Assembly (NCBI GenBank): GCA_965285935.1
Contig: OZ260662.1
Span: 80,600,001-80,664,000, forward strand
DNA from: Ophelia neglecta
Lineage: Eukaryota
Direction of reading: 5' to 3'
Length of the DNA: 64,000 nucleotides
Positions 3,547 to 63,756 of the stretch are shown here, one piece after another. The translations under genes were made by a program, and so were the position numbers. The notes below the pieces were generated by a model, which was given only the letters and a program-made list of their open reading frames with translations, searched no databases and was not told the origin of the DNA. Position 1 is the first letter of the stretch; every line of letters starts with the position of its first letter.

Positions 3547-6500
3547 ATGCTTGTAAATATTTTGATCGTGATATTATGCTCCTTTGCTGTGTCTGGAGAA
3601 AAGGAGTCATATGAAGGGTGAGTTAATTATTTTCGAGAGTAAATATGTGATTAGTCTATAAACAAATACAGACTCAGACTCAGACTCAGACTCAGACAAA
3701 TTTATTTAGGACAATAAAGTATATACATGGGTTATGCATTATTGTGGACAAATAATGGTTAGTCCAGGGAGACACAAGTTAAGACATATAATGTCGCTCT
3801 CACATGAGCCACCCTTAGAATTAATTAAATAAAATTTAAGTTTTCGTCAAGGCAAAAATAATAAAATTGAACATAACAGCGATTGTAGATTAACTTAATT
3901 ACTCCAAACCAAGATAAACCAAAACGAAAAAAGATAATATAAAGCCAACAGCCGTGGCAGGTAAAAAAGAAAGTAAATACAACAAAGCAACACACTCCTT
4001 TATAAGCGAACTATAATATAACTGAAAGAATATTTAATTATCATTTTAAATACGCTTGAGACAAACAGAGGAAGAAGGAGGCTCCATCCAGTCTCTATTC
4101 GACAGGGCAAAGAATGATGCGTTATTGCATAATTAATGCGAACGAATAATATAAATGACATCAAGACAAAAGAATAATAAAAAACAGAAAAAACAAACAA
4201 AACAAAATGAGGCATGGCAAAACAAAATCATGCAGAGTCTTGACACACATAACAGTGCGGTATAATACAAGCTTGTGAGTAGCTATCAATGAAATGTTTC
4301 TTGACAAAAATAGAAAAACCACTTAAGCTATGCGTATCTACTTTTGTTTTAATAACATTTGGAGTTTCATTCAGAATAGAAATAACCTTATGTCTGAGGG
4401 ACTTTTGTGCAAATGTGTGCTTGGCCTGCAAGACATGTAAACTACCAGAACCACGTGTATTGTAACCATGAAGCTCAAAATTTGTCAAGATTGGAAGATT
4501 ATAGAAATATGCCGGAAGTAAGTTATTTTTCAATTTAAAGAAAAATTTTATTATTTGGGTTTTATAAATGTCTTCAACCTTAAGGAGGTAAAGATCTTTT
4601 AAAATAGGTTCAGAATGTGCATTATACTTGGCGTCTTTAATAATTCGGACTGCTTTTTTCTGCAGTTTCTGACTTCTAGAATGCTCATGTCCCCAGGCCA
4701 GAATACAATAATTCAAGTGAGGTACAATTAGTGTATTGTAAAGAGTCAAAAGAATATTTTGAGGAAGAATTTTTTTCAATTTGCACATTATACCAACAGC
4801 CTTAGAAATCCTACCAGCAACTTTGTTTATGTGACTAGCCCAGTTTAAATGTTTGTGAATAGTCAAACCCAAAAAATTAAACTCATCCACATGTTCCAAA
4901 TAAGTGAGATCAATCTCAATGCGTGGAACTTGTATAATCTTACGGGGCATGTGGAACACAGTAAACTTTGTTTTATCCTTATTTAGAGACAGTTTATTCA
5001 CCCGTAGCCATTCTATAACCTTAGCTAACTCCTCGTTGATCGTATTCTGAGTGTTTGTTGTAAAATTGTTTATTTTGAAAGAGCGCAAGGTACTATTTAA
5101 TGTGGTATCATCTGCATAAATTACTGAGTGAAACAACCTGCTGGCAAAATTAATATCATTCATGTATATAATGAATAAGAGGGGGCCTAAAATAGACCCC
5201 TGTGGTACTCCAGTTTTAATGACCAGTAAGTCTGATCTAGCTTCACCCAGTTGCACAAACTGACTTCTATTAGAAATATAGCTCACAAGAAGCGAGAGAG
5301 TATTATCAAATAAACCATAGTAACGGAGTTTATAGATTAAAATTTTGTGGTCAATGGTATCAAATGCCTTTGATAAATCCATATATATGTTTATAGGTAG
5401 TTCGCCCCTATCTAATTCTTGAATAATTGTATCTATCAGCTCGAGAGCTGCTAGCTCAGTAGAGTGTTTTGGTCTAAATCCATATTGGTGATTGTAAAAT
5501 AAATTTTGAAGTTGTAAAAAATGATACAATTGAGAAGAGATTACCTTCTCGAACACTTTAGAAATCACAGGCAACAAAGAGATAGGGCGATAATTTTTAA
5601 TTAGAGTGTTGTTGTCCTTTTTGTAGAAAGGAATTACTTTTGCGATTTTGAGTTTGTCTGGGAAGACACCCATGGTAATTGATTGGTTTAAAATAAGGGT
5701 GATGTAGGGACTAAGTTCATTTTTTACAAGTTTCAAAAAATTAGAGGAAATTTCATCATACCCACAACTTGATTTAGATTTAAGCTGTTCAATAGTTTTA
5801 AGTGTGAGACAATTGTCAACCAGGTCAAACTTTAACTTGTTTATATTGGGACAGAGCAAATAATCAGCAAAACTTTTGTTTGAGTGTATGTTACTTATGT
5901 TTGCTGCAAGGTTTGGCCCAACATTGATGTAATAGCTATTAAAAGCGTTGGCAATACTAACAGGATCTGTCACTAATTTACCATCAATTTTAAAGAAATC
6001 AGGAAAACGTTTTTTATTGTCAGTTTTGTTTAATATAATATTAATAGTTTTCCAAGTATTTTTAATGTCATTTTTATATCGGTCAAAAGAGGATTCATAA
6101 TATTTTCTTTTGGCAAGAGTAATATTTTTCCTTAAAATATCATTATACATATCCAAATTTGACTTCAAAGTTTGCCTTTCTACAGTATCTTGGGGGGTCG
6201 ATATGACCCTTTTATACAGTTTGTCTCTGAAATTGATGGATCTAATGATACCATGTGTGATCCATGCAGAATTTTTATGTTTGCGTTTATTAAATTTGAC
6301 CGTTTTAGTTCCAAAATGTTTATGGTAAGATTCAGAAATGACCTTTTCAAGTAAATTATAATTGCTGATTGGGTCAAAGTCTAGATTGTAGTTAAGTTTA
6401 TGCTCCAAATTGGCAGAGACAATATCTTTTTTAAAATTTTCAACTGAGTTAGGGGTCTGACGTTTAATCTGAATAAATTTAGGCACATCTTTTTTAAAGT

Positions 6501-9500
6501 TAATAATATTAATTGAGAGAAAATACGGCTGATGATCCGATATTTTGTCTAGCAAGACTCCACCAGTAGACTCATTTAAGTTTGAATTGAATTTACAAAT
6601 AAAGTTGTCTTATAATGTAGCCTTATATTTCGAAAATCGGGTTGGCAATGTGATTTTGGGAAAGAAACCAAGACTCATTATTGTATCCAGATAGTCAGTA
6701 AATATTGGAGTGTCATTGATTCGAAGTAAGTCAATATTATAATCTCCGGCAACAATCACATCACCATTTCCTTTACTTAACCGTTTTAAAATCAGAGAGA
6801 ATTCATTAATGAAGAGCTTGTAGTTTTCATTTAAATGTCGAGGGGGTCTGTAAATATTCCCCAGAGTTAATTTTCTGCGGAGGCCATTACCAGCTACCTC
6901 AATAAATTGCCCCTCCCAAATCACAGAATTCTTATAAACCTTAACTACTTTGTACTCAAAATCTTCTAATAAGTAAACTGTTAGACCTCCATGCGATGAG
7001 CATATACTACCCTGATGAATCATTTTATATCCATCTATTTGTAGAAGAGACAATTCAGATTGATCAGTAAGCCACGTTTCTTGGATACAAATAGCCCTAA
7101 AAAATTGGCCATTACTCTTATGTTTTTCTATTAGAATATTAATGCTGTCAAATTTAGCTCTCAAGCTTTGACAATTTAAACTTAATATAGAGAAATTTTT
7201 ACCTTGGGTGTTTAAAATATCAATCAGTTTTGAGTTATCCACATAAGGAGAATGTTTTATAATCTCTGGTTCATTTACTGAGGCAATGTCCTCATTATCA
7301 ACCTCATGACCTAAAATATTCAAAAGGGAATTATTGTTGAGACCCCCAAAATGTTTAAGAATTTCTTCGTCCTCACCCATTAAGAATTATTATGTATTAA
7401 TAGAAGAATCAATAAGAGTAAATAAAATAGTTTAATCAACATGACTGTGTATTTATAGAGATAGCAGAGGCAAATATAAAAATACTGATAGTTATGTATT
7501 GATAATAATATATGATAAACAAGTACTGATAGCAATATCATGGCCGAGCCAACCATCAAAAGCACTGATGACCAAGCACTAAATGAAAAAATAATATGAT
7601 AGTTGAAGCAACCATCCAGGTAAACATACTTGCCAATACACCCAAAGGCAGATAGACAAACATTTAACATAACACCGACACGGGATTGACACCCTATCCA
7701 CCAGAGTCTGGAAATAAGTTCAACAGAAAATACCTTCGAGTTCACTGAATGCACTGAAATCCCGTGGCAATTTCAAATAAGATTGCCATATTCACAAAAG
7801 GTCATTCCAGGTCATTCATGTCCTGCTCAGTCACAACCTTGATGACCCTGCTGGTATCAGTCTTCCTTATAAATATATGCCCATCCTTGATCCACAACCA
7901 CTTGTAATTTGCATTCTTCTTGAGTTCTCGAGCCTTGCCGAAAAGCCGTTTTTTCTCCGGAGCTAATTGTTCATTGACATAAAAAGGCTGTTCTGGAAAT
8001 GAAGGGTCAATCCTGTCAGTTGTCATGTTGGCCCTTCTAAGTTTGAAGTCCCTTAGGAAATCCCTTTTTACCCTCCGTTTAGAGAATTTAACCACAATTG
8101 GTCTAGGAGTAGACCTGATTGTAGCCCTAGGTGGTAAGGTTATTCTATGAGCTGCTTCAATGTCGTCCAATGAGATGGTTTTACCAAGAGTGTTACCGAT
8201 CTTCATGATTATTTGATCAATGCCTTCATCCGCCTTTTCTGGGATTCCATGAATTTCAAGATTGTTTATCCTAGAATACTGTTCCAGCTCAAGGACTCTG
8301 GACTGTAAGCCTCCATTGAGTTTCTCCAACTCCTGTATCTTAGCAACATGTTTTCCCTGCTCAGCCCTTAATTCAGCATTTTCTGTCTTAATTTGACTGA
8401 CAATATTCAAATGTTCTTCATATTTATCACTTAAGAATTGTATAGAAGTTTTCATCTCAGCCAAGTCATTGCTTAGCTTAGGTATCTGACTCACTGACTT
8501 CTGGATGTCCTTTAGAATATCACTGGAATTAAGTTCTGATGCCATACCTGTAGACTGAGGAAGGACAGGAGAGCCTCCGTCCCTATGCTTTTTCTCAAGA
8601 TGTACAGACGAAGGAGATGTGTCGCTAATGTTACGTCTTTTTAGAGGCAAGGGAGTCTTGTATTCCATAGCAATATAATATAGTACATTTTGTTTACAAG
8701 CCTGTGCCAATGGAATTGTATACCAAAGTGCAATCGGATACCAGTTTGTACCCACAGCTGTCGTTCTGGTCTGTTGAATTTCAATTGTCCATTGTTCAAT
8801 ATAGAAACCCCTGTTTGATTGTATGTGCAGTTAGGTATGCTGAGTCTAAATTGTATAAGACTGCTATACATACATTCCAGATTGAGGGCATGTGACAAAT
8901 TTAAAATCCAATATCTGAAGAAAGTCCATAATGCTATGTTCCTCAAGCAAGCACACCTGCATTCCGAACATATTCACACAAACAACTCACGTATTTCCAG
9001 ATTTTCAAGACCACGATCTGATGTATAATTTGAAGTTTTTAGAGAGGCCAACAAAGTAGCCAACCTACTAGCTGGCCTTGACCTTGACCTTGACCATTTC
9101 CCCGGGATGGGGTGAGGGAGGGGGGTGGGGTGGTCAGCTGTCTACGATTTAGGGGAGGGATGCAGAGCCGGCAACTCAAATTGGGTGTCAATGTTATAGC
9201 AAAGTCGGTGAAAACGACCCTACCTCTTATCAGCTTATCAACCAACCGCCCCCCCCCCCCCCCCGCCCCTGGGAGCGTTTCGCATCCACGTAATGAAGAA
9301 AGTAGTGTATCGGGCCTGGACAAGCGCATCTGATAAGATCCTGGTACCTTGTCTAGAGGAATGTTTATTTTGTCGCATATGACATTTTGTTTCTTAGGTA
9401 CACCGTGTTGGAAATAATTCCTGCAACTCAAATGCAGCTGGACTACCTCCATATGATGGTAACCAATGAAAATGCGGTAGGTTTTAAAAGGCAAACGGAA

Positions 9501-12500
9501 GTAAAAACCTGGCAGACCAACCGAAATCAGTATTCACAAAAGTCGACTAAAAACGACACATAATATCTATCATATGGTAACATTACAGCAATCCCCTTAA
9601 AAATAAGCTGGTAATTAAGTTTGTTTGGAAAAGTGCTTGTGCAAACCTTTACTTATGGACAGTAAACGTTTCATAACTATACATCAATTTAAAGAAGTGA
9701 CTGTAGTATTCTACTACTTACCACGTCTTACTACTTACCTCGGTTATTGCGGTCATGGCAGAGGGTAACCTAGTAACAGGGTCATATGTTCCATGTACAC
9801 CAACCAGAACCAGTACCAGTATTAAATGACATAGCACATCACTTTCATGCTCTCCTCTTTATTTACCCTTATAACCTGTCTTACAATTCTACATTGGCGA
9901 CGAGGATACTTACGAACTTTACGCGAGGATACATACATCATCAGGAACAATATTTTGTGAGGAGGAGATACGGAGTTTTTACGAATTTACAGATTTTGGG
10001 AACTATAGTGTTAGCAGATTAGCTCAGCGTTATCAATACAGGCCATTACAGGAAAAAACCGGTCAGATCCAGTTTTGGTCAGTTCAGGACGGCCCAGTCG
10101 AGATCGCCCAGCCAAACGCACGTGGAGTCAGTCAGTTTTTGGAATCTACAACATGGCGGACAATGGCCAGCAGGCAAGTTCAGTGCCTTACTATCCCCCT
10201 TTTGAATACGACATGGATAAAGCTAACGCAGGATCAAGATGGAAGAGATACATAGCAAAATTAGAACTTTTATTCGGAGCAATGGAGATACCAGATGAAA
10301 AACAAGACAGGAAAAGATCCCTGCTATTACACTACGTTGGAGACAGCTGTTACGACATTTACGAGGCCAACAAGGGAGATACGGCAGAGACGTATGACGC
10401 GACTAAACAGGTATTTAAGGATTATTTCGAACCAAAAACAAACATACAGATAGACATTTTTCATTTTCGCACATGTAAACAAAAGGAAGGGAAATCGCTT
10501 GAAGAATTCGTTACTGAACTGAGACAATTAGGAAAGAATTGTGAATTTGTGAACACTGACAAGGAGATACTATCGCAAATCATACAACATTGTAAATCCT
10601 TTAGACTTCGCCGCAGAGCTTTGAGAGAACCAGAAAAGAGCTTAGCAGATATTGTGGAACTTGGAAAAACACTCGAAAGATCAGACGTAACTGCAGCTAC
10701 TATGGAGGCCCAACCGGGTGTAAACGCAATACACAAGCAACAAAATAAAAAGTCACATGGACATGACAAAAAGAATCGTACGGCCCCCACCAAACCAACT
10801 TACGGAAAAGGACCAGATAGGAACTATAAACAAAAGGTACGAAATAATGAAGGAACAGGCAGCAACAAGACATGTATATTCTGTGGAGGTAATTTCCCGC
10901 ACCAAGGACAGTGCCCGGCTAAAGGTAAAGAATGCCATTACTGTCACAAATTAAACCACTACAAGAGTTGTTGTTTGAAGTTAAAGCACAAAAACAAAAT
11001 TAGACAATTACTAGTAACTACTGAAGGAGAACCGGAAGAAATACCGGAAGCCAGCCAATCAAGTACAGATTCTGATTCAGAAGATTACGTGTATTTAGTA
11101 CAATCTGTAAATGCAATAGGCAGAGATAAGCCTATGGTGCATTTGAAATTAAACAATGTGAATACAAAAATTTTGTGGACACTGGCACTACGATCAATAT
11201 TCTTGATAGGAAGACCTACGAAAGCATTGGAAGGCCTACACTTACAAAATCAGATACAGTAGCTTACTCATACCAGAGTGACAATAGTGTCAAGATGATG
11301 GGCCAATGTACAGTGAACATTGAAACCAGAAATTTGAAACAGGCCCACGTTTTTGAGGTTGCTAAAGGCAACTATGGATCACTTCTCAGCTACAACACAG
11401 CCAAATGTCTGGGACTAGTGAAAATTATAAACAATGTTCAAGACAATATCAAAGACAAATTTCCAGGGATATACGAAGGAATTGGCAAATTGAAAGGGGT
11501 CAAGGTCAAACTACATGTTGATGAAACTGTCCGTCCAGTAGCCCTGAAACACAGAGTCACGCCATTCCACTTGAGAAAACATGTTGAACACGAGATTGAT
11601 AAACTTTTGGAAGAAGATATTATTGAACCAGTGTATGGTATACCAACGCCATGGATATCACCAATTGTAACACCACCAAAGAAAGATGGAAAGTCCATCA
11701 GACTGTGTGTTGACATGCGCGAACCTAACAAGGCAATACTCAGAGAACGCCATAAAATGCCAACAATGGATGAAATGATCAGTGACCTTAACAATGCAAA
11801 GGTTTTCAGCAAACTAGACTTGAGGTCAGGCTATCATCAACTAGTACTAGAAGAGTCGTCAAGAGAAATCACTACATTTAGCACACATAAAGGCCTTTTC
11901 AGATACAAAAGGCTGAGTTTTGGAGTTTCATCCGCAAGTGAGGTGTTCCAGAAAGCAATTCAAGATGTGATTCAGGATGTTCCCAACACAAAGAACATAA
12001 GTGACGATATCATAGTGTACGGATGTAAGGACAAAGAACACAACAAGGCACTAGATGACACCCTGAGGCGCATTCACGAAAAAGGCCTCACGCTCAACGA
12101 AGAAAAATGTGAATTTAATAAACACAAAATCACATTCTACGGAATGGTCTTCAGCGCAGATGGAGTCTCTCCCGACCCCAAAAAGGTTAAAGCCATCAGA
12201 GAGGCTGATAGACCTGAAGATATATCAGCTGTGAAGAGCTTCCTGTCGACAACCAAATTCTCATCGAGGTTCATTCGAGACTATTCCAATATTACTGAAC
12301 CACTACGGAGGCTCACAAAACAAGATGTCACATTTAAATGGGGAGATGAACAGGAAGCAGCATTTCAGAAGCTCAAAGCAGCCCTGACAGATTACAGTAC
12401 TTTGGCCTACTTTAATCCGAACGTACAAACAGAAATCATTGTGGACGCTGCGCCACATGGCCTCGGCGGAATACTAGTACAAGGCAAACAGATTATCTCA

Positions 12501-15500
12501 TACGCAAGCAGATCGCTTACAGATGTCGAGTCCAGATACAGTCAGACAGAAAGAGAAGCCCTGGCTGTCGTATGGGGTTGTGAACACTTTGATACATACA
12601 TCAATGGAGCCGATAAGGTCATATTGACAACGATACGCCAGAAGCTCCTGCCCCTACCGAGCCGTCTCCATCACCAAGGAGATCCAGCCGCCAAAGAAGG
12701 GAACCTACGCACCTGAAGGATTATATTAGATCATAAATTTATTATTATTCATAACAGTCGAGTAGACACGTATTCGTATAGAAGAAACATTTATTTTAGT
12801 ACAACGGCATAAATTTTTAGTTTACTAGTTAACTGTTTAAAATATGTGCTGAATGATCTGGACTGTGGACATTAATATCATCAACAAAAAAAAAAAAAAC
12901 ATTGGTGAAGAAGAATGTAGTATTCTACTACTTACCACGTCTTACTACTTACCTCGGTTATTGCGGTCATGGCAGAGTGTAACCTAGTAACAGGGTCATA
13001 TGTTCCATGTACACCAACCAGAACCAGTACCAGTATTAAATGACATAGCACATCACTTTCATGCTCTCCTCTTTATTTACCCTTTTAACCTGTCTTACAA
13101 TTCTACAGTGACTATTTTTTTCAACTCGTTGCTGATTGTTTTGTGCATGATATCCCTTTATAGTTTGATGTTTGGTTGGAGGCGCGTCGTGTTGGCGATA
13201 GGGCACATATTATGATCAGTCCAACTCATTTGATATCAACTGTCAAGGAACTGCGTAGCAGAGGAATCACATTTAAATATTTGATTACAAATGTTGAAAA
13301 GTAGGTAACAATAAAATTAATATGTTTACTGTGATATAGCCACTAGAATATAGGCTATATTCAGCAATAAACATTAAAAAAATGTTTGAACGTATCTGAT
13401 GTTAGTCTCGTAGAACAAGAGGGGGAGCGTTTAAGGAGAAAGAAGAGCACACGATCCGGATCCGACTACAATGATTTCAACACGTATGCAGAAGTGGGTA
13501 TCATTGAATGAATTTTTTTTAAGTTATACATAAATCAACACCATACATGTAAGTGAATGTTTAGTACAAAAAGAATGAAATAATATGAATCAATCTAACA
13601 TGTCAAACACAAATCATAGCAAATGCAGACGCATAAACCAAAACTAAACGAATCAAAGTGCAGTTTTTGCCTGTACAAAATACTGTCAATGGATATACAG
13701 AAGAATGGAGGCAAAGGGGATTGGACCCCAAATGGCGTATGTGCCCTCCCACTACTCCCACTACTAAAGCGTCATATAAAAATTGCACAACCGAGAAAAA
13801 ATTGCAAAGTTAGCTTAATTATTACAGGAAAATCCTGACATATTTCATCAATCAGAAAGGAGAAATCATTTTTCAAAAAAGAAAATACACAAAAATAGTC
13901 TCCAGAAAACTGTCAGTTAATCGTCTGTGAGAAATTTATATTTCCTGAACTGTAGTTGCGAGGTGCTATAAAAAGAAGTTTAAACGTTTATGTGATCATA
14001 GATAATGGTTGAAATGGACAGAATGGCGGAACGATGTCCCACTCATTTAGGAGTCTTCTGTCTAACCTATGTCATTGGGAAGACTTATGAGGGAAGATAT
14101 CTTAAAGTACTTAAGGTAACAGCAAATCTCAAGACTAGGAGCAGCTTTAGTTACTGGTTTGATATATAACATGTATATGAATTTAGCCATACAATATGAT
14201 GTGGTATTCTTTCGAATAACATAAATCGGTTTTTCGCACAGGTTTACAAGAATGGAGGTGACAGAAAGGCATTTTGGTTAGACTCTACGATACATGCCAG
14301 AGAATGGCTCTCCCCAACTACTAATCTCAATATCGCCAACAAGGTTTGAAACTGGGGTTTGTTTATTATTGTTAAGTTGAGTGTGTATTTAATTATTGTT
14401 TAAAAAATATTCTTTAATGATTAGATTTATTTCCGTTTAATATGCAACATCTGGCTGTATTGTTTGTCGTATTTAGCCCTCAAGATATACACGGACACGA
14501 TTGCTCTGTTTTAAATGTGTCTGTTTTAATACTTTATTTAAACGGTTAAAAAGGCCTATCGCCCCTTATCCATGAAAATATCAAATGACAATATTCCAAT
14601 TGTACGGGAACTGATCATTGGAATCATTATGTTTGGTGAATATATTACCGGACAACTGTCCCCCAGACACTAATTAATAAATTGATCAGATTTAAACTAG
14701 GCAGTGCGCCATATTGAACATTTCAAATCAAACAAATCAGATGATTTCGAAAAAAATGAAAACATATACAATTTGCATTTAAAATCTTTTTGGTATGTTT
14801 TTATTTGACAATCTTTTTTTTACCAAGCTGATTAATGATTACGGTACGGATACCGAAGCCCAGGTGATGCTAGCAGATACCGACTGGTACTTCCTGTTTG
14901 TAATGAACCCGGATGGGTATTCCTACACGTGGGACGTCGTAAGATACGCCAAATACAGTTATTTTTATTTTAAAAGATGATATAACGTTTTCATATCGAC
15001 ATAGAAGGCAGTCAAACCCAAATTTACGCAGTAGGCCTAGTAGTAGTCAATATAGGAAGACTATCATCACGTGATCTCATTACCACCACTCTGTACGGAC
15101 ACTTTATTTTAAATAGGCTCGCCTGTGGAGAAAAAACCGTTTCCCAAGTAGGGAGGCAGGTATAAATACAATATGCAATGGAATTGATCTCAACAGGAAT
15201 TATGAACTTCGTTGGGGAGGTAAGTTTGTTAGTTATTCAACCATTTTCGATAAGAATTTTAATCACACATCAGGTAGTCCATCATAATTATTTTTTACTA
15301 TTAATTTTTATCTTTAGGTTTTCTTGTCTTCCATATTTTCAGTTTCGGGTGCCAGTGACGACCCCTGTTCAATCGTTTACAAAGGCCACGTGCCTGCCAG
15401 TGAGCTGGAGACCCAGGCGGTCCAGGCCGAAGCCCAGCGGCTAGGGCCTACCCTGATTGCCTGGGTCAGCATCCACACGTATGCTCAGTACATTCTCCAT

Positions 15501-16869
15501 CCCTTAGGCAGCGAGACCTCACCAGGGGTATGCGAATACCTGCCTGACCCGCAAAACTCAGATGTGGTTGGTCACTTCATTTACACATAATAAACCTTGC
15601 TGAATGTCTTATTTTCAAGCTTTCTTGCAATGAATAACGTTGCGAGCCTTATTGAAGTTCATAAGAACATCGTTAATTTTCAAAGTTTTTGAGAAATTGT
15701 GTTCATTGCATGTATCACATGCTCACATACACAGACACACACATATATAGTATGTTATATTATTTTAATGTAGTACTATGTTGCCTCACGGATTGCGAAT
15801 GCAATAGAAACAGTCCACCAAACAGTATGGGAGCGTGGTAATTCTTGTGAAATTTTGTGTAAGTATATTAAACAAGAGTGAAACACTTTAAATTCAGAAC
15901 CAAGTAAATGGCTAATTTTTATAAATATCAAAATATTTCATTGCATGTTTTGTAATTGATTTCTTAGTAATTAAATTCTATCCTTTATTGACTGGTCGCT
16001 TGAGGCGGTCTCTACAAGCTGTGAGGGTAGTACAAATTTTATAAGATTGGCCAGGTCAACATCGAAATTCGTCTGCAAGCTGCACCTCTAATTAAAGGGA
16101 GAAAGCATTGCTAATTATCTGTTCACGGATAAAGTGTGTGCATGAAATAAACGACAATATATTCATCTTCGAGTTTCAATGAACACTTTCTCTCAAGTCA
16201 TCATCTTTACTGATGACCGGCCAATTCAATGTGGCTATCGGCGACGAGCGGCCAAGAGCAAAGGCGTCGTGATTGGATCTTGTTTCGCCGCGGCTTAATG
16301 ACACACCAAATTGTATTTCCATTAATCTTATTTATATAAATCACTTAAGGACAAGAAGCTGGACCTATGCTTGAAAACCACATAAAGTATATATATACAA
16401 AGCATATATGCACCATGTACCATTCAGACGAACTCATTATATGAATGCAGTGAGACTTATTGGCTGAATATCAATAAATTAGAATAAATAATAAGCCACA
16501 AAATAAAAAAAAGAAAAGAAAAATTGTTTCGTTGCATGGTAATGTCTGTCCAGTACTTATATCAATTAATCAAAAGACCCATTTAGCCGCATTGTATAAT
16601 TTGGCGCCAGTTAAGATGACACCGGTGGCTTAATAAAAGGTTTCTCCACAGATCCCGCCTCTGGGATGACGATGGACTACGCAATGGGATCTGCTGGTGT
16701 GAAATACGGCTTTTTGCCAGAACTCCGAGGCCAGACGACAGATGGCAGCAATATTTATGGTTTTGTAGCGCCACAAACCGAAATTCAGCCTGCTTTTGAG
16801 GAGACGTGGAAGGGCATTGTTGCCATGGTGATGGCTTCCAGGGAAGAGTGTCTGCTGCTGTTTTGTTAA
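3547..16869 (+). CDS. CP1: M14A pre-pro-carboxypeptidase, ~443 aa. Exons 3547-3617, 9398-9476, 13164-13300, 13406-13493, 14002-14115, 14242-14343, 14828-14938, 15117-15219, 15343-15566, 15774-15858, 16652-16869
   Basis: Signal peptide MLVNILIVILCSFAVSG, propeptide (FDVWLEARR), IHARE, NPDGY, WRKNR, DLNRN, IHTY, YPASGMTMDY and PELRG. GT-AG introns; exon lengths sum to 1332 nt with no internal stop. Introns 1 and 2 are expanded by retroelements. Confidence 0.92.
4228..7380 (-). CDS. LINE ORF2 (APE endonuclease + reverse transcriptase), split by one in-frame TAA at 6610-6612
   Basis: APE motifs LNCQSL, CIQETW, YRPP, GDYN and SDH; RT motifs NYRPISLL, DLSKAFD, GVPQGSILGP and YADD; C-terminal CIIPHCYVC. 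ORFs 6610-7380 and 4228-6555 are in the same frame. Confidence 0.92.
7802..8755 (-). CDS. LINE ORF1 protein (coiled coil + RRM-like/FP25K-like domain); true start probably downstream (MEYK or MASE)
   Basis: Heptad-rich region followed by RINNLEIHGIPE, AAHR, RPIVVKF, YVNEQL and WIKDGHIFIRK, motifs typical of CR1/L2-group ORF1. Confidence 0.85.
   Translation of the reverse strand: MGTNWYPIALWYTIPLAQACKQNVLYYIAMEYKTPLPLKRRNISDTSPSSVHLEKKHRDGGSPVLPQSTGMASELNSSDILKDIQKSVSQIPKLSNDLAEMKTSIQFLSDKYEEHLNIVSQIKTENAELRAEQGKHVAKIQELEKLNGGLQSRVLELEQYSRINNLEIHGIPEKADEGIDQIIMKIGNTLGKTISLDDIEAAHRITLPPRATIRSTPRPIVVKFSKRRVKRDFLRDFKLRRANMTTDRIDPSFPEQPFYVNEQLAPEKKRLFGKARELKKNANYKWLWIKDGHIFIRKTDTSRVIKVVTEQDMNDLE
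9702..9893 (+). repeat. 5' LTR
   Basis: Direct repeat of 12916-13107 with 2 substitutions by eye. Confidence 0.95.
9895..9907 (+). other. Primer-binding site, tRNA-Ser(GCU) type
   Basis: TGGCGACGAGGAT lies 1 nt after the LTR and is complementary to the 3' end (...ATCCTCGTCG-CCA) of animal tRNA-Ser(GCU). Confidence 0.8.
10153..11262 (+). CDS. gag with two zinc knuckles; frameshifted just before the protease active site
   Basis: Zinc knuckles CIFCGGNFPHQGQC and CHYCHKLNHYKSCC. The ATG at 10153 is the likely start. Confidence 0.88.
   Translation: MADNGQQASSVPYYPPFEYDMDKANAGSRWKRYIAKLELLFGAMEIPDEKQDRKRSLLLHYVGDSCYDIYEANKGDTAETYDATKQVFKDYFEPKTNIQIDIFHFRTCKQKEGKSLEEFVTELRQLGKNCEFVNTDKEILSQIIQHCKSFRLRRRALREPEKSLADIVELGKTLERSDVTAATMEAQPGVNAIHKQQNKKSHGHDKKNRTAPTKPTYGKGPDRNYKQKVRNNEGTGSNKTCIFCGGNFPHQGQCPAKGKECHYCHKLNHYKSCCLKLKHKNKIRQLLVTTEGEPEEIPEASQSSTDSDSEDYVYLVQSVNAIGRDKPMVHLKLNNVNTKILWTLALRSIFLIGRPTKALEGLHLQNQIQ
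11175..12716 (+). CDS. pol fragment: aspartic protease (DTG), RT and N-terminal RNase H; integrase missing
   Basis: VDTGTTINI, RLCVDMR, FSKLDLRSGYHQ, NISDDII, VDAAPHGLG and YSQTEREALAVVWG. No HHCC or DDE integrase follows. Confidence 0.92.
   Translation: MDTGTTINILDRKTYESIGRPTLTKSDTVAYSYQSDNSVKMMGQCTVNIETRNLKQAHVFEVAKGNYGSLLSYNTAKCLGLVKIINNVQDNIKDKFPGIYEGIGKLKGVKVKLHVDETVRPVALKHRVTPFHLRKHVEHEIDKLLEEDIIEPVYGIPTPWISPIVTPPKKDGKSIRLCVDMREPNKAILRERHKMPTMDEMISDLNNAKVFSKLDLRSGYHQLVLEESSREITTFSTHKGLFRYKRLSFGVSSASEVFQKAIQDVIQDVPNTKNISDDIIVYGCKDKEHNKALDDTLRRIHEKGLTLNEEKCEFNKHKITFYGMVFSADGVSPDPKKVKAIREADRPEDISAVKSFLSTTKFSSRFIRDYSNITEPLRRLTKQDVTFKWGDEQEAAFQKLKAALTDYSTLAYFNPNVQTEIIVDAAPHGLGGILVQGKQIISYASRSLTDVESRYSQTEREALAVVWGCEHFDTYINGADKVILTTIRQKLLPLPSRLHHQGDPAAKEGNLRT
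12916..13107 (+). repeat. 3' LTR
   Basis: Preceded by the purine tract GGTGAAGAAGAA and followed by the TSD GTGAC. Confidence 0.95.
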
Positions 16870-23200: not shown

Positions 23201-23421
23201 ACGGCCTCCAAGATTTTATCCTGACCCCTTTAGTAGTTTGTTAGTCTCTTGATGGGTACTACAATATTGATCTTAAGCGTCACATCTTTAGAGAAAAATT
23301 AGCTTTGAAATGTGTAAGCTATTTATACAAACCCATTGTAGTTCTTTGGAGTTTCAACGTATTTGCCGCCAGCGCAGTTGATAATCCCACCAAGAAGCAA
23401 TATGGCGTTCACGTAGCCCAT
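17228..23421 (-). CDS. CP2: M14A pre-pro-carboxypeptidase, ~439 aa, 12 exons: 23421-23333, 22201-22126, 21904-21768, 21522-21435, 21290-21177, 20975-20874, 20644-20528, 20317-20227, 19811-19591, 18911-18827, 17616-17546, 17356-17228
   Basis: Signal peptide [47 protein letters not shown] and SPE/TRG, ending CTLLLC*. The exons give 1320 nt in frame; the last intron is GC-AG. Confidence 0.9.
17793..17907. repeat. 16-bp tandem repeat (~7 copies; TTATTCCGAAGGTCCG alternating with ATGTTCCGAAGGTCCG)
   Basis: Directly visible in CP2 intron 10. Confidence 0.9.
19879..20091. mobile_element. Fold-back/MITE-like element with long imperfect inverted arms in CP2 intron 8
   Basis: ATTGCAAGTGAC...TCATTGGTAGA..GTTAGC pairs with GCTAAC..TCTACCAATGA...GTCACTTGCAAT. 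Confidence 0.6.
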
Positions 23422-24406: not shown

Positions 24407-24561
24407 ATGAATGTTGTATTATTTGGCTTGTTTGTAGGATTCATATGCTTGGATATTTGTGATGCTTTCGGACGGAGAAACTTGTATAACGGGTAACTGA
24501 ATCCTACATCTTATATAAACCAATAATATGATGAAGGCAGATGATCGATCGAGGATTTAAA

Positions 24562-24601
<40 letters not shown>

Positions 24602-51989: not shown

Positions 51990-51998
51990 TCTCTCTCA

Positions 51999-52044
<46 letters not shown>

Positions 52045-52308: not shown

Positions 52309-53570
52309 TTGGTTAGCTATTTTCAGATAGGTAGCTACCGCTAGCCACTCTCGGGCGTGGATCTTAGAGTCTATCCAGTAGGCAGGGCGGTTTGGCGTGT
52401 CAATTTTAATCTGTGATAGGCAATCATAAAACCTAGTTAGCAAGTTTCCGTGTCGACGCCCACCATGTGCAATGTAGGGCATGAAAATGTAAAAATTGGT
52501 GTATCCAATGAAAGTAATTCTTTTCCTATTTGGTCATAGCCGTTGTATTTTCTGATCTCTTCCGTCGTAGGATTGTCCGTTAACGTACGTCTGGCATTTA
52601 ATTCCCATATCACCTCGACATTTAGATGCTTAGACGTCCATCCCGTCGATAATCTAGTATAAAATAACGATGTCTAGATAATAAATGGGTACGTTTGCGT
52701 TCATTTTGGTGTGTACAAATATCTAAAGGTTATTTTAAAAAATACACGGGAATAAATTTCAAGAGACTTCTAAAATGCCTATCTCGTCATATGTATGAAA
52801 GTTATCATTATCAAATGAAGTCGATCAATTCCTCCCCTCTCTCAATAGGGTCAGTCGGGGATGATGTAATAATTCTAGTTCAGCCTGCTAGCAAGGAGGT
52901 GACAGCACTGCATACCAATAGTCTGCACTTGAATGTGGGGCTATAGACTACAGATTTGCAGCGGTTCCATGTTCATTGCGAAACCTGTAGCTATCACACA
53001 AATGTGAAATTTACCTCAATGGAAAACCCTCTCAAATGTTAATCATCCCTGAAAGTGTTGTTTTGATTACTTCAACAAGCACTAAGTAAGGGCTTTTAAA
53101 ACATCATTCCCATGTTAAATTCCCATAAGAACAGCTGAAAGTAGCCCCACTTATCCCAGCCTTACCACTGCCTTTTAATTGCAATCAGCTTTGGAGGTGA
53201 GAAAAGTGGTTGTTGGTCAGCAGTATGAAACATATCCGAATGGCGCTATTTTAAAAGTGTCATCTCAAGTTCTCATCGGACAACAACCTGCCGCACGTGC
53301 CAGTTGAAAATTTAACTGAAATGGTTAATTTTATTATGATTAAGTTCTACAAATAAAAAAGTAATATTACTATTAATATTTCTATTAATTAATGAAGAAT
53401 GACAATTGTGTGTCTGCAGAAATATTCGTAGTTACCTTTACACATCGTCGATAACAAATTTGTGTTCCATGCCGTCTTCATTTATATATTTACCATGCTT
53501 TGTATTTGTGGCGAGGGACCATGATAAGCGCCTCATCATTTATCCTGAGAGAACTCACCCAAAAGTGTAG
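52309..53570 (-). pseudogene. CP6: partial M14A pseudogene (exons 3-6), a CP5-type duplicate
   Basis: Exon 3 (~53570-53436) has frameshifts and stops. The exon 4 remnant (~52784-52830) has its donor mutated to AT. Exon 5 (52653-52540) has an in-frame TAA and a lost donor. Exon 6 (52410-52309) still reads IHAREWLAVA. Confidence 0.85.
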
Positions 53571-54700
53571 CTTAATTTTTTTTTAACTTTACCTTTCTAA
53601 ACATTCGTTATATGCAGAAATGTGTCGTAAATACAATAACAGAAGTGGTCACCAAAAGTGAGCCGCCCCTTGTTACACATTAAAACTTTACAATTGCGCT
53701 TGAGACTTTCTACATGCATGTTATATGCTTGCTTATAAAAAAGTATTTTACAACCTAACTCTTTACAAAGGATCCCAGGACTTGAATGACAACATAATAG
53801 TCTTGGGAAATGTGGTCACTTTCCAAAGTTGACCATAATTATTACTACAGAAAGTTGCATGATACTTATCTGTATAAACATTTTTATGTGTCGCTTGCTA
53901 AGAAACAGTTGTCTATTAGCAATAAACTTCCCACAGTCAAACAGTTAATAAAATTATCACCTAATTCGTTACATACGTTACATTTTCTTTCTTCCAGTAC
54001 CATCTTGTCTTCCTTTTTCATTAGCTAGATAATGATAACTAAGCCTAAATTTTGACATCCAGATTCTAAGAGAGGGTGGGAGTATCAGTAAATAATGTTC
54101 AAGAGACAGATCTTTCTAGTTCTATTATTTCACTTTGAGTAATAATCTAGGTGTAGTCTCCCGATTAAACCATGTTCGACTAGATAACCGGACAATCTCT
54201 TATCATATATTACAGACGTGAACAACTTTCGCAAAGAGAAAAAAATGGTGATTATCCGGAACTTCATTAACTCCCTTTTAAAATATATATCGAGAAATGA
54301 CGCCGAAAATATATATGCAAGGTACTAATTATGACTCTCACGAACGTTGTGATTTACTTTTGCCTAATGATGGTGAGATAGTGTCAAGATTGTTATTAAT
54401 GGTCAATATTCACCTCATGTCGCAGGTGGGAGCAAAGAAATTCTGGATATCGACCCCGTGGAAATAACTTTTGTGATCGTGATGGGAACTGGCGGGACGA
54501 TACTGCTGACTACGGGGAAAATACGGCATATCACAGTTGGGGTAATAGTGAAGGTTACGATCACAGCGAGAACCCTTACTTCTCCAATTGAAGATGCTTC
54601 GTTTATATGCAAAGTTTAAAACGTCTCTGAAAATGTATTGTAACGTTATAATATATGTTTGCGCTGTGTCATGTAAAGGTGGCAGTTTAGTATTTGTAAC

Positions 54701-57700
54701 ATGGACAGTATGTTCAAGGTAGCTACGTTAAACGCAAGGGGATTGGGTGATATTAAAAAAAGGAGGGACATATTTGAGTATTTGAGAAAGCAAAATTGTA
54801 ATTTATATTGTATTCAAGATTTTCACTGTACCACAAAACTTGAAAACCAGTACGAGAAAGAGTGGGGTTATAAGTGTATTTTTAGCTCAGTCTCCTCATG
54901 TAGTAGAGGTGTTGCATTGCTCTTTAAGTACAATTTTGAATTCCAAATTCATTGCACAAAAATAGACAAAGAAGGGAATTATGTTGCGTTAGACATCACT
55001 ATTGAAGGCACTAGGTTAACGTTAATCACATTGTATGGGCCAAATAGAGACACTCCAGGGTTTTATTTAAATATATCCAATATTGTTAATGAATTAGAAA
55101 ATGCTACTGTTATCATATGCGGAGACTGGAACTTAGTGAGAGATCAATCAAAAGACACTAAGTATTACAGAAACGAAAATAATTTAAAGTCCAGAGAGGT
55201 TGTCGAAAATATGTGCGAATTGTTTAACTTATATGATCCCTGGCGATCATTGTACCCTGATACCAGAAGGTATACATGGCGTCAAAAACGCCCGATAAAA
55301 TTTGCAAGGCTGGACTTCTTTTTAGTAACTGAAGATTTGCTTAATCTAACCGATAGGGTGGATATTCTCCCCTCCTATCGATCCGATCACTCCATGGTCG
55401 TTGCTGACTTTGAATTAAAGACACAAAGCAGGGGTAGGGGATTTTGGAAACTGAATACATCTCTATTGAAAGACCCGGTATACATAGAAAAAGTAAAGGG
55501 AATTATTAGGGACACTATTAGCAAATATGCAGCCCCAGGGGAAGACCTTTCTAAAAAGAATATTAAGTTAAATATATCCGACCAACTCTTCTTCGAAATG
55601 GTTAAATTAGATGTAAGAGGTTTTTCTATTTCGTATGCGGTGGCTAAGAAAAAGGAGAGAGAGCGTAAAGAAAAGCAGCTGGAAGAGAAAATACTTACCC
55701 TAGAGGCCAAATTAACCTCTGCGACCATTTCACAGTCAAATAAGGAAATCAACTCCACTATAGAGTCAATTGATATTGTAAAGTCAGAATTGGAAAATAT
55801 GAGACAGGAAAGAGTAAGAGGCATATTACTACGGGCGAAATCTCGATGGCATGAAGAAGGGGAGAAAGCGACAAAATATTTCTGCAGCCTGGAAAAGCGG
55901 AACTACACCGCCAAACTTATATCTAAATAAATGACAACGGTAGTGAAATTACTGATCCGAAATCAGTTTTAGGAAAGGTTGAAGAATTCTACAAATCATT
56001 GTACTCCTCCAAGTGTTCCAATTTAAAACATTTAGATTATTTTTTAAACAACTTTAATGTGAAGAAAATTAATGATGCACAGAAACAAATGTGCGAAAGC
56101 CCATTTCAGGAATCTGAGCTTAAAGAAGCAATAAAGAACATGGCTAACGGTAAAACCCCGGGCTCTGATGGATTTCCCGTTGAGTTTTACAAGATGTTTT
56201 GGAATGAAATAGGTTACTTTTTATTGAGATCTATTAATAATGCTTTCCTTACCAAAGAATTATCTCCCATTCAAAAACAAGGGGTCATAACTTGTTTACC
56301 GAAAGAGGATAAGCCTAGGCAGTATTTGAAAAACTGGCGTCCCATAACATTACTGAACGTTGATTATAAAATTATATCCTCCGTTTTAGCTAATAGAATG
56401 AAGATTCCATTACAAGACATCATAGGAGAAAACCAAAAAGGCTTCCTCCAGGAAAGATTTATAGGCGAAAACACTAGATTAGTATATGATATTATAGATA
56501 TCTTACAAAGTAGACACCAAACAGCTCTACTCCTACTCGTTGACTTTGAAAAGGCGTTTGATTCAATCGAGTGGAGCTTTATTGAAAAGGTATTGGTCGC
56601 TTATAACTTCGGAGAAAATTTCTTAGCCAGGTTTAATTTACTTTACAGAAATTCAGTTAGCTGCGTGATTAACAATGGGTTTCCATCACAGTTCTTCAGT
56701 CTTGGCAGGGGATGTCGTCAAGGTGACCCCATATCACCGTACTTGTTTATATTAGCTATAGAGCCGCTAGCTCAAGCTCTTAAAAATGACAAACAGGTGG
56801 TTGGCATTAGATTAGAGGGTTATGAATTTCTCTTAGGTCAGTACGCGGATGACACCTTCCTGCTCTTGGACGGGTCACCTCAGTCTCTTAGGGCGGCAAT
56901 GAATAATTTTATAAAGTTTGAGAGCACGTCTGGGCTCCGAATTAATATTGATAAGACTCAGGCGGTATGGGTAGGGCACAACTCGCACCTACAAAATAAA
57001 ATGTGCGATGAAATCACGATCAAGTGGGTCGACTGTTTTAAGTTATTGGGAATAAAATTCACTCAAAACTTAGATAATATGATTGAAATTAACCTAAGAG
57101 ATAAAATTACGGAGACAAAAGCTCTTTTAAGGGCGTACTCGGGACGGACATTGAGCCTGTTAGGAAAAGTGACTGTGATAAAAACTTTGGCCATACCAAA
57201 ACTGGTTCATGTCTTGTCCGTTCTGCCTCGTCCGTCAAAGTGTATTATTGATGAACTAAAAAAGTTGTATAATGAATTTCTATGGAATGGGGGGAGGTCA
57301 AAAATTAAACGGTCAGTTTTGTCTAAGTCATATGACAAAGGCGGTTTAAAATACACTGATTTAGATGTATTTATTGATTCCTTGAAAATGTCTTGGGTGT
57401 ATAGACATGTTAAATCAGCAAACTCTGAAGGTGGTTGGCAACAGCTACTCAATGTAATTATTCCTCAGATGGATATGGGAAGCATATGGGATCTAGATGC
57501 CCCATCTTTAACTAATTTGTCAATGTATTTAAAGAATCCATTCTGGAGGCAAGTGTTAACTGGCTGGAGTAAATTTGTAAATTTGTCAACAGAAGGGACT
57601 ATAATAATACTATAATGAATATGCCAATTTGGTCATCATGTTATATTAAAAACGAAAATCTGCAAGTACTGAAAAGAAAATTGTACTCTAATGGGTGTAA

Positions 57701-58775
57701 AATGTTTAGAGACTTGTTTGATGTAACGTCAGGTACTATTTTGTCTTACAATGAGTTTAGAGTTAAATTTGATGTTGACATTAACTTCTTAGACTATGCA
57801 AGCTTAGTCGATAGTATACCACAGACTTGGAGACATCAGGATATAAATGTAAACAATAACAATTCTCCTGCTTTGTCCAAGATATTGACGTGTAAAAAGG
57901 TGTCTTGTTTTGTGTATTGGGAATTTATTAACAGCGATACCACATCTGCAAAATGTAAGCAAAAATGGTCTGAGATTGTTAATTGTGAATTCGTAGGAAA
58001 AGACTGGGAAATGTTCTTCTTACTGCCTTTTCGTATATCTGTTGAAAGTAAACTAAGAGCTTTTCAATTTAAAATTTTGCATAGGGTTCTTCCGACAAAT
58101 AGTTGGTTATACAAATGTAAAATTAAGGACTCGCCAAAATGTGATTTTTGTGGTACAGGGGTGGAGACCCTCGAACACCTTTTTTGTAACTGCCGTATAG
58201 TTCAGTCCTTATGGGAAGGCTTAAGTAACTGGTTGTGCCCTGTGGTAAGCCGTCTCCCAATTGGAAATGTTAAATCTATTCTGTTAGGCTACGTAGATGA
58301 TGATCCACATCTTGAGTTAATAAATATACTACTGACGGTGTCCAAAAGATATATTTATGTGAGGAAGTGTAATTCTAAATCGGTTAAGCTGCTTGATCTG
58401 TTATATTTCATTAAACAGTATTACTATATAGAAAAGCATATTGGCAAGAATAACTGTGTATTTTCGAAAAGACTAGAAAAATGGACACCAATCATAACAA
58501 AGTTGGAAGATTTGTAAAATTTAGTCTTGTCATTCATGTACCCTGAAGGACATATTTATAGGCCTATATTTGTTTTATTCAGATATATCATATATCATAA
58601 ATCATATCTCATATATATTATAACCTGTAAACCTGTCCAAATTATACACTTTTATTTCATTTGTATATAATTTGTTGGCTGCTAATGTGATTAGATCTTA
58701 CATTGCGATTGTGTACGTACTATTATTGGACAAATAAAATAAAAGTTTAAAAAAAAACCAAAAACAAAAAAAAAA
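54701..58775 (+). mobile_element. L1/Tx1-clade LINE: ORF2 with two -1 frameshifts (~55925, ~57600), 3' UTR and poly(A); probable ORF1 tail at ~54410-54592
   Basis: TLNARGL, LYGPN, GDWN, RLDFFL, SDHS, KTPGSDG, NWRPITLLN, DFEKAFD, GCRQGDPISP, QYADD and CDFC...H...C; A-rich tail at 58733-58775. Confidence 0.93.
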
Positions 58776-60160: not shown

Positions 60161-61424
60161 AACAACATGAATTATCCCTCGTCCCTGGTACGAACCTGAA
60201 CTCAGGATCGCCTGCATCTGGCTGGTTATGTCTGTAAATTTCATGTCCATGTTGTTCTGTTTATACTTTCACGGTTCCTTCATTATTCATGTCTGCGATT
60301 TCAGAGGTTTTAAATAATTAAACTGATTAGATTGCTTCTATATAATGTTTGGCTTGTTGATTTTGGTTGTTAATGGATTGTTTCATTTGTTTACCTTTTT
60401 GTCTGTATTGTTTATATTTCGTTTTAAGGCTTTCACATAACCAAATAGGTATAATAATTGTAATAATAGCCTCTCAAGTTATTCCGTAATGAAATTGATA
60501 ACCCATGGGAATACAGCATGTCTTGCATAGCGTGTATACTTTTTTATAGCTACATGCGTAATCTGCCGTGCAAAGGCAGAATGCAGTAACGCTACAAAGT
60601 TACGATTTTTTTATTTTTACAACTTTGTAATCTATAAGTGGGGAAATCTGTTACCAAAATAATTTTGGACATTGGACACAAGGAAAGGCATTTTCCATGT
60701 GTGGTTAACGACAGTAACTGGTTAAAATCCGTGTGATGCAAACGCAGAAGGTAGTAAGCGAGTTACTGCTGTTTGCCGTTGAAAGTATGCTGCCGTACAA
60801 AGGCAAAGGACAGTGTCATACATGTATTAATAAGTACATTGGGAAAAGACAGTATTATATGATTAGAGCAACTGATGAAAAGGCAAAAGACAATATCATA
60901 TGATTATTACAAAGGCATATGATTAACGCGAGGGCAGACGGTATTATCATAACCAATGCAAAGACAATGGGCAGTGTCGATTAAAAAGTCAATTTTAGAC
61001 TAAAATAAATCAATTGAAATTGTGGTATTGTATCAGTAGGTTGCACTTTTTGGATTATTTTTATAGCAGAGGTGTACGCTCTTCATTTTGCTGGTCGGTG
61101 GGATTACATTTAGACTCGTTTTTTTTCAAAAGTTAGCCATCGCGCCACAGCGGGAGCTTTTGCCCTTGGCCTTTGCTCGGCAATTATCAATAAACAATTG
61201 AATACACGAATTTAATGTACATAACTCCTAACATGCTATATAAAAAGATAAAGTGATTACATTCTGAAGTATCTAATTTCCCTACTTTCGTATCAGATTA
61301 AACTAAATCCTTTATAAACGTAATACTAAATACATACCAAAATAATCAATAATCAATAATAATAATAATAATAATAACAATCAGCAAGACAATAAACAAG
61401 ATAATTGCAATCATATTTATTAAA

Positions 61425-63756
61425 TTAACAATTTAGAAGTACACATTTGCCGTTGATGGCATTAACCATTGTGACAAAGCCGTTTAACATTTCCTCGAAT
61501 GAAGGTTGAATCTCCGAAGCAGGAGGTACAAAGCCGTAAACGTTACCATCAGAATCCTCGTTTCTCAGCTCTGGGGTAAAGGAGTATTTCACTCCACCAA
61601 CTCCTCTAGCATAGTCCTGAGTTAATCCCGATGCCGGATCTAAAGTATATCGGTTTAACATATTAAGTCGGTTTAACATATTAAGTAAGGCGACATCACG
61701 AAAAATTAATCGATTATTTGGATCCAAACATAAAGGCCCTATTTCAGAGTTGGAAACGTTTGTGGCAAAACTGCAATGCTAACATATTGTTTGGCAGGAA
61801 TTTCCGCCTTTCCATGTGCTGTGCCCAAAAGTGTTCTGGATTTTCTCAGCCATGACCTTAGCAACATAGTCCTGTGAGCAAAAAGAAACATTTGATGTTT
61901 GAGAATTAAAGGCACGGTTCAGAAAATGTATTGGTGGGATTAGCCTAAATATTCCAATTCCAGATCACAAGACACACCACTTCACTCTGTTCGGGTTCCT
62001 CCAGGAATTCACAGACTGACGTATCAGCGGGATCGACCAGACTCCCCCAAGGCATCAAGATGAGACGGGCAGCCGTGTGGATTGTAACAAAAGCCTTAAG
62101 ATGAGGAGCTAGCCGCCGGATTTCCGTTTGTACGTTCTGGACTTCTATCTGATCAGCGGGAGCTTCTCCTTTGTAGACATTTGAACATGGATTGGCACTG
62201 GCACCAGCGTCTGGAAATAAAATGTTCTAAGCTCTGGTTTTGATAATGCAACTGATATATCTAAAAAAAACATTTCCTCCCGTTTGAATGCAAAATTAAA
62301 TGAACATTTGAAATAAAACGTTAGCACGTTAAGCCCACGCCACACAGATCCACATACTTCCCCATTGGTGTTCGTAATTTCTGTTCAAATCTACGCCTAT
62401 GCAGTTTAAGACGAGTTCAGTATTGTTATATCTATTCTTTCTCCAAAGTCTTTCCTGAAACCAAAACCAACCTTAACATTACAAATATTGAGGCCAAAAC
62501 AACCGGCTATTGATTAAAGACGGACGTGCGGAGGCTATGCGGAGGCGGACGTCATGGATATGTCTGGGTGGCAAGAAGCAAAATTCTCCATCAAAGCTAA
62601 GGTAAGGGCTAGGGGTTTATTCAGTGTCCGGGAAAGGGTTAGGAACAGGTTTATACAGGTCTAGTATTGTGTCCTAAACTCGGGATTAACTTCCGCAAGG
62701 CTCCGCTTTTAATCAGAGGCTAAAAAATGCAATAAATAAACGAACGACGGATCATGGGAACAAGTATTGTAATGACATCTTCTTACATCCGTCCAACTAT
62801 AAACGTAACCATCCGGGTTGTGTACAAACAGGAAGTACCAGTCTCCATCATCTAACATCATCCGGGCATCCGTGTCCGAGTCGTAGTTGGTTATAATCTA
62901 CAAAGAAAATAAAAACGAAAATGCCAAGAAGTAAGGCTATTACCAGATAGAGTAAGAATATAAACATTAACCAATCACGGAGCGAGCTATTCCGTGTAGT
63001 CTTATATGTGCAAGGCGGAATTCTAGGATGTCATTATTACTTGCACAATGAGGGATATTGGAATTTGAAATTCTCAAAATGGGGACCTGCGGCCAACCTA
63101 GATAATAGGTGTATAGGCATATTAGCAATGTTTTGGCAGAACCCATGATCAAAAAATTTCAGAAAGTCGCCAGTAGGTCTACCATCCTTTTGTATTTAAC
63201 ATTAAAAGGGAAAAAATCGCGATCGGCTTCAATATTTATCAAGGATGTTGTTTTGCTGATCAAGCCCTACTGCTACTGTTGTGAGCGGCTTTGTGCCTGG
63301 GGTCTGGGAGGCGTTGTGCATTTTTTCTCTCCCTTCAACTCAGGAGTCTGAGCTTATCAGCAGTGATCAGGTGTTGGTGGTGTTTTCTGCCCCCCCCCCC
63401 CCCCACTCCTCCCTCCTCTCGTTGCCCTCGCCGTAATAATAGTTGTTCTCCACCTTCTTTGCATTTAACTAAGTTCCATTTTCTGTGTTAATATTTTGCT
63501 CGCATTTATAGTTATGTAAATTGTATCAACTCCGGTGTAACTATGTAGTTCAGGTACGAACAGACGAACTGATACCCAAATACAGAAGGACAAGACAAAA
63601 ATGCGTAGCCCTGTAGAGGTAACCAAGAACAACAATGTATATAACATTGCTCACGTGGTTGGCTATCTTCAGATTTGTTGCCACAGCAAGCCACTCTCTC
63701 GCGTGGATCTGGGAGTCCATCCAGTAGGCTCTGCGATACGGCTGGTCTTTGTACAC
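61425..63756 (-). CDS. CP7: M14A carboxypeptidase, exons 6-11 (5'-partial; closest to CP3): 63756-63655, 62897-62787, 62454-62358, 62210-61978, 61871-61784, 61639-61425
   Basis: IHARE, NPDGY, WRKNR, DLNRN, IHTAAR, YPASGLTQDY and PELRN, ending CVLLNC*. GT-AG introns in phase. Confidence 0.9.
62505..62720. mobile_element. Degenerate MITE-like element with internal GGGTTA-like motifs in CP7 intron 7
   Basis: Imperfect inverted ends TGATTAAAGACGGA..GCGGAG / CTTCCGC..TCCGCTTTTAATCA. Confidence 0.45.

Follow-up and report, generated by a model that had tools for sequence, protein, structure and literature searches.

Zinc carboxypeptidases of the M14A family share an established catalytic mechanism, and the usual role of their secreted zymogens is digestive. 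Among the closest described systems, CPO genes stand in tandem clusters, and the residue at the specificity position 255 is polar in 19 of 74 CPO-like duplicates (accessible part of PMC9925722). One of them, Cpo.3 of Xenopus tropicalis, has Gln255 and cleaved a Glu substrate; cleavage of Ala was not significant (p 0.09) and Phe was not cleaved, according to the same text. Here we analyse a 64,000-nucleotide window of Ophelia neglecta (G000:C2:80600001-80664000, contig OZ260662.1; coordinates below are on the window scale unless stated) and its surroundings, which hold an array of M14A genes. Like the Xenopus Cpo.1-Cpo.4 and fish CPO arrays, as described in the accessible part of PMC9925722, it consists of tandem M14A paralogues that differ at 255, include Gln255 and are under purifying selection, but it is an independent lineage with a full activation peptide. 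The array is a routine expansion, within one lineage, of a known family, and it includes one modest variant that is open to testing. Its ten tandem-duplicated zinc procarboxypeptidases are probably secreted digestive enzymes, and the paralogues probably divide C-terminal residues among themselves through residue 255, a common pattern among M14A enzymes.

The region examined spans 224 kb, made up of the window, 100 kb upstream and 60 kb downstream, and 34 further stretches at other M14 matches were taken for comparison from the intron-rich, 762-Mb genome, in which PF00246 gave 142 exon-level matches. Gene models were built exon by exon with GT/GC-AG splice boundaries and zero internal stops. 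The original prediction described a seven-locus array; the window does hold six intact genes and one decayed fragment (CP6), but the full array comprises ten intact genes, with U3, U2 and U1 lying upstream and D1 downstream. The zinc ligands His69, Glu72 and His196 as well as Arg127, Asn144, Arg145 and Glu270 are present in all ten, and Tyr248 in nine, D1 having Ser. The predicted full catalytic set (H69, E72, R127, N144, R145, H196, Y248, E270) was borne out in the spliced models of all six genes of the window; the codon for Tyr248 is split by an intron and therefore reads Tyr only after splicing. A simple hydropathy scan found a hydrophobic, signal-like first exon in 10 of 10 genes, and the PF02244 activation peptide scored above the cut-off in both exons tested. 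For the fold we used a proxy, the relative P0179 only, which shares the 248-256 motif of CP7 and has the procarboxypeptidase A fold (pLDDT 91, TM 0.87 to 1aye, without residue-level superposition). Judged through this relative, the pancreatic A1/A2/A4/B enzymes (1aye, 1pca, 5om9, 2boa, 1kwm) are alike in fold, as they are in propeptide and catalytic residues, but they have Ile or Asp at 255 and Tyr198 and are about 30% identical to the array. None of the array genes bears the CPB-type mark (Asp255, or Asp207 as in M14B) or the CPO-type mark Arg/Lys255, although Arg255 occurs elsewhere in the genome (L017, L035). The CPA6-type mark Met255 is found in CP1, CP2 and CP4, and in trees built without CPA6 sequences the array genes nest among annelid-type sequences.

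Checking the numbering against solved structures upheld the assignments of 255 and 198. Residues 249-256 and 196-204 align ungapped to CPA1, CPA2, CPA4, CPB and CPO chains: the last exon of CP3 runs ungapped against human CPA1 from residue 250, so that its Gln falls where CPB has Asp255, CPO Arg and CPA4 Ile, and in the alignment of the His196 exon Ala falls on Tyr198. The predicted residues were recovered in the spliced models: Met255 in CP1, CP2 and CP4 (codons at 16672, 17596 and 36355) with Tyr, Phe and Tyr at 198; Gln255 in CP3, CP5 and CP7 (codons at 34392, 44136 and 61619) with Ala at 198 in all three; and M, S, L, S, I, L at 253 with L, S or T at 268. The DSQI motif before His69, also predicted for the Gln255 genes, is present in four of five, but D1 has Met there. 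The statement that position 253 is Gly in CPA and CPB is not general, as the human CPA1, CPA4 and CPO chains have Ser253. The S1' pocket is formed by positions 203, 207, 243, 247, 253, 255 and 268 in the accessible part of PMC9925722, whereas excerpts of PMC10687636 define S1' by Asn144, Arg145, Tyr248 and Xaa255 and place Tyr198 under S1-S4, in contact with the inhibitor residue Val38. Position 198 thus belongs to the non-primed subsites, not to S1'.

We compared these states with those of related proteins. The full-length search gave 575 matches, and 99 sequences from its best 120 were grouped by rank as annelid-type; they comprise two query proteins and P0158-P0254, and the tree places 3 of the 99 elsewhere than in the clade. 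All eight species-named proteins among the 97 matches P0158-P0254 are from annelids, and these nearest named relatives make an annelid host likely. The residue at 255 is Met in 40 sequences, Asp in 30, Gln in 9, Val and Ile in 5 each, Ala in 4, Thr in 3, Leu in 2 and His in 1; Ile (37) and Gly (30) lead at 253; and 198 is Tyr in 94 and Ala in 1. Because the 99 are mutually related and the query included Met255 and Gln255 proteins, the counts show commonness, not independent events. Members of this clade (Capitella CAPTEDRAFT_155643/_219486, Dimorphilus DgyrCDS5267/5270/9173, Helobdella, Paralvinella and unnamed transcripts) resemble the array in Gly207, Pro269, Ile/Leu253 with Met255 and frequent Gln255, with Thr or Ser at 198 in Dimorphilus. 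The array differs in being a sub-clade with good support, most members of which have an insertion following position 272, and in having Ala198 fixed in five genes. Leu203, Gly207, Ser243, Ile247, Ala250, Ile/Leu253, Thr254, Met255 and Thr268 are all common states of the wider clade, and the suggested non-classical or specially narrowed S1' pockets are therefore not supported: what the array shows there is the majority or a common condition among annelid-type enzymes.

This applies to Met255 in particular, which defines vertebrate CPA6 and is the commonest residue among the 99 relatives, and so is not non-classical. The CPA6 enzymes are known for hydrophobic C-terminal specificity. Met255 is said to be absent from other family members (accessible part of PMC2945764); the annelid-type Met255 sequences contradict that statement, although they lie outside its vertebrate scope. 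The residue shared with CPA6 is probably convergent. Gln255 is also recurrent. A profile built from the last exons of the five Gln255 genes, which favours Gln, retrieved 357 proteins from 1.84 billion representatives, and in the best 150 of these 139 stretches could be aligned that include position 255. They held 18 different residues there, among them Asp in 34 stretches, Gln in 16, Ala in 14, Val and Ile in 11 each, and Met and Tyr in 8 each, and the profile stretches had Gly253 in 38 and Ser253 in 37 cases. The original prediction would have been weakened by Gln255 being common, and in part it is, with 9 of the 99 relatives and 16 of the 139 stretches, the latter from a profile biased toward Gln. 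In a FastTree tree, without topology test, Gln255 appeared at five places besides the array. The at least 22 other M14A genes of the genome have 11 different residues at 255 by our count (six Asp, four Val, two each of Tyr, Arg and Ala, and single cases of Met, Leu, Ser, Pro, Asn and Ile). A second tandem cluster (L050, L018-L022; C2:26.19-26.24 Mb) consists of five M14A genes of the same wider clade, three with Asp255 and two with Val255. Elsewhere, L032, L043 and L044 are M14A-like with altered zinc or catalytic motifs and are probable pseudoenzymes, and L029 and L031, at a distance of 1.7 Mb from the Tyr255 gene L028, are two partial duplicates of its 3' exons.

By analogy with CPA chemistry, the zymogens would be activated by (tryptic) cleavage at the basic stretch closing the propeptide, zinc would be held by H69, E72 and H196, hydrolysis would be driven by E270 with R127, and the terminal carboxylate of the substrate would be held by N144, R145 and Y248. 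The Met255 genes are predicted to cleave hydrophobic C-termini in the manner of CPA6. The Gln255 genes have Gly207 and are for that reason predicted to cleave small neutral, polar and possibly acidic C-termini, similarly to Cpo.3, but not Lys or Arg. The array genes differ from Cpo.3 in having Ser, Thr or Ala at 243 where Cpo.3 has Phe (accessible part of PMC9925722). Domains I and II of the M14B enzyme CPD also have Gln at the position equivalent to 255, but there it is combined with Asp207, from which the basic specificity derives (excerpts of PMC5683605); the array genes, with Gly207, have an activation peptide and lack a transthyretin-like domain. The specificity of the Gln255/Ala198 enzymes, suggested to be uncharacterised, is so only as far as the pair is concerned: our searches found no counterpart to it, but Gln255 has been assayed once, in Xenopus Cpo.3 (PMC9925722, accessible part). 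Independently of 255, Ala198 would open the S1/S2 wall and so alter the P1 preference or weaken the binding of protein inhibitors, and judging from the sequences one of these changes is likely.

The history of the Gln255/Ala198 pair was assessed with a tree of 51 sequences and 287 columns (LG+G4). A clade with varied residues at 255 unites the ten array genes with a gene at C2:88.01 Mb, 7.4 Mb from the array (UFBoot 99; support 0.998 once about 100 relatives were added), which supports the predicted lineage-specific battery. Within it, U1, CP3, CP5, CP7 and D1 form a sub-clade (UFBoot 92). As the five Gln255/Ala198 genes are one clade, the pairing is a single inherited event. The class was proposed to be covarying; both residues indeed occur in all five genes, but they have one origin, co-occurrence across independent origins was not observed, and each state is seen without the other. 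All nine Gln255 proteins among the 99 relatives have Tyr198, as do P0012, P0128, P0149 and L051, which also carry Gln255, and Ala198 is combined with Ala255 (L027), Asn255 (L042), Val255 (P0224) and other residues in the P0030 domains. Both observations tell against a functional coupling of the two residues in a new specificity subclass, one directed, for instance, at acidic or amide C-terminal residues that follow a bulky or modified P1 residue, as do the single origin, the absence of 198 from the listed S1' residues and the composition of the clade itself: among 304 gap-free columns, 157 are invariant in the five genes and 11 distinguish these from the remaining array genes, and while 198 and 255 are 2 of these 11, most are away from the known pocket positions. 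Such a coupling could find support in the fixation of both states in all five members, in Ala199 and Arg200 going along with them, in the lack of any of the 99 relatives with both states and in L042 (C8:56.85 Mb), an unrelated M14A gene that independently pairs a small residue at 198 with another amide, Asn255. On balance, we consider it unlikely.

What remains distinctive is Ala198, the only uncommon change, which adjoins the pocket and has been kept in five diverged paralogues. Protein searches found Gln255 and Ala198 together on no protein outside the array. The His-Thr-Ala-Ala motif recurs in two exon-sized proteins in ENA (57-58% identity), in which 255 is not visible. A single-exon search for longer proteins gave no match among 45 candidates, which is weak evidence, and a metagenome scan with the His196-exon alignment gave 405 pattern matches, none of them confirmed; a second scan gave 125 matches, with one locus being a Gln255/Tyr198 enzyme. 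We found no literature on an M14A enzyme with Ala198, though coverage was poor for subscription journals, and the accessible parts of PMC6214572 and PMC2249575 hold no information on 198 or 255.

Loss of Tyr198 could also be an escape from dietary, parasite or endogenous inhibitors, the C-terminal tails of which pack against this residue. Tyr198 touches Val38 of the potato inhibitor (excerpts of PMC10687636) and is a hotspot in three of five simulated enzyme-inhibitor complexes, but its contribution there is about -1.5 to -4 kcal/mol against -12 to -32 kcal/mol for Arg71/Arg127 (accessible part of PMC13388685). With Arg71, Arg127 and Tyr248 all kept, the inhibitor source for O. neglecta not known and pairwise tests without non-synonymous excess, we regard this as very unlikely. 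Those tests comprised 36 valid pairs, with the U3 pairs left out, and 32 of the 36 were saturated. The dN/dS was measurable in four pairs, CP3-CP7 (0.10), CP1-CP4 (0.14), CP5-D1 (0.15) and CP5-CP7 (0.07), and these are under purifying selection. Three of the four lie inside the Ala198 clade, with values of 0.07-0.15, and all five of its genes retain the zinc ligands, R127, N144, R145 and E270; drift or a loss of catalysis in the Ala198 genes, which would make them binding proteins or pseudoenzymes, is thus extremely unlikely, even though D1 lacks Tyr248 and Phe279 and CP6 has decayed.

Several points weigh against reading the array simply as digestive enzymes that partition substrates through 255. 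The putative digestive role draws on family knowledge, the frequencies among the 99 relatives are not independent counts, and D1, with Ser248 where 99 of 99 relatives have Tyr248, may be weakly active. All five paralogues, which are 60-89% identical, have both Ala198 and Gln255, with varied codons and largely saturated synonymous sites, Ala198 is rare (1 of 99), and the surrounding motif recurs in the two ENA proteins; given this invariance, rarity and recurrence, the subclass may be old and specialised. An old, conserved annelid subclass marked by Gln255, Ala198, Ala199 and Arg200, with a remodelled S1-S1' cleft that takes off C-terminal residues poorly served by the known M14A enzymes (e.g., acidic or amide ones preceded by a P1 that is bulky or modified, for instance by glycosylation) or that resists canonical carboxypeptidase inhibitors, is nevertheless unlikely, and we retain a lineage expansion with division of substrates through 255 as the probable interpretation.

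The genes of the window differ in structure. CP1 (3547..16869, +) is intact, with Tyr198, Met253, Met255 and Leu268, and has 11 exons (3547-3617, 9398-9476, 13164-13300, 13406-13493, 14002-14115, 14242-14343, 14828-14938, 15117-15219, 15343-15566, 15774-15858 and 16652-16869), the propeptide exon matching PF02244. Its first intron contains a LINE-type retroelement with endonuclease and reverse transcriptase (RT; 4228..8830, -), which is not part of the enzyme, and its second an LTR-retrotransposon remnant with gag, RT and RNase H (10015..12716, +). CP2 (17228..23421, -) is intact, with Phe198, Ser253, Met255, Ser268 and Pro70, and has an extra GC-AG intron (17545-17357, -) right behind the Glu270 codon that is not found in the other nine array genes. 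A frameshift at this point was ruled out, as splicing 17546 to 17356 leaves the frame open and makes residue 271 Thr, not Leu. CP3 (24407..34586, +) is intact, matches PF02244 and PF00246, has Ala198 (33959-33961), Ser253, Gln255 (34392-34394) and Thr268, and carries a LINE-type retroelement in intron 3 (27967..31343, +). CP4 (36158..40684, -), with Tyr198, Leu253, Met255 and Thr268, is intact, the end of its exon 2 being provisional, and is the sister of CP1 with 77% identity of the catalytic domains. CP5 (43903..48700, -) is intact, with Ala198 (44576-44574), Ile253, Gln255 (44136-44134) and an extended C-terminal tail; a very high-copy repeat at 45274-45795 in one of its introns reaches a summed contig depth as high as about 70,000, compared with about 30 on either side. 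In three sequencing runs of one sample the stretch 31500-48500 was covered in 30 of 30 bins, but the runs may come from the source sample and are then not independent support for the assembly.

CP6 (52309..53570, -) is a decayed CP5-type fragment of four exon remnants with stops and one frame break. A tblastn search with CP5 over 48750-61300 found no exon past that of H69/E72, so CP6 has no residue 196 or 255. Between CP6 and CP7 lies another LINE-type retroelement (54677..58517, +). CP7 (61425..64000 for its part in the window, -) has its last six exons here, with Ala198 (62073-62071), Leu253 and Gln255 (61619-61617), and its first five outside the window at 64465-65424 on the same scale, the gene start exon being at 65424. 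It is the sister of CP3, with 89% identity; an assembly duplication was ruled out, as their exons are 71-93% identical, their introns unalike and dS 0.57. Upstream, U3 (L003-L004) has Ile255 and Tyr198, an additional intron ahead of His196 and another within the last exon, and CP2 as its sister, and just past it G000:C2:80524944-80525156 gives a weak PF00246 match with stops, possibly another fragment. U2 (L004-L005) has the most divergent pocket of the array, with Ser255, Cys253, Gly268 and Ile243, and its sister is L027, 7.4 Mb off, with Ala198 and Ala255; U1 is Gln255/Ala198. Downstream, D1 (L011 3975-3710, -) combines Gln255/Ala198 with Ser248, Leu279 and a Cys-rich tail, and from these residues it may be an attenuated enzyme.

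The array adds an invertebrate case of specificity-site shuffling in tandem M14A genes, and its importance is modest. In annelid-type enzymes, position 255, with Met commonest and Gln recurrent, is far more variable than the textbook scheme of aliphatic, Asp or Arg residues implies. With Ile, Ser, Met and Gln at 255 and Tyr, Phe and Ala at 198, the genes form a natural panel for P1'/P1 preference, and should the Ala198 clade turn out to have a new specificity or to resist inhibitors, C-terminal proteomics would gain a useful reagent.

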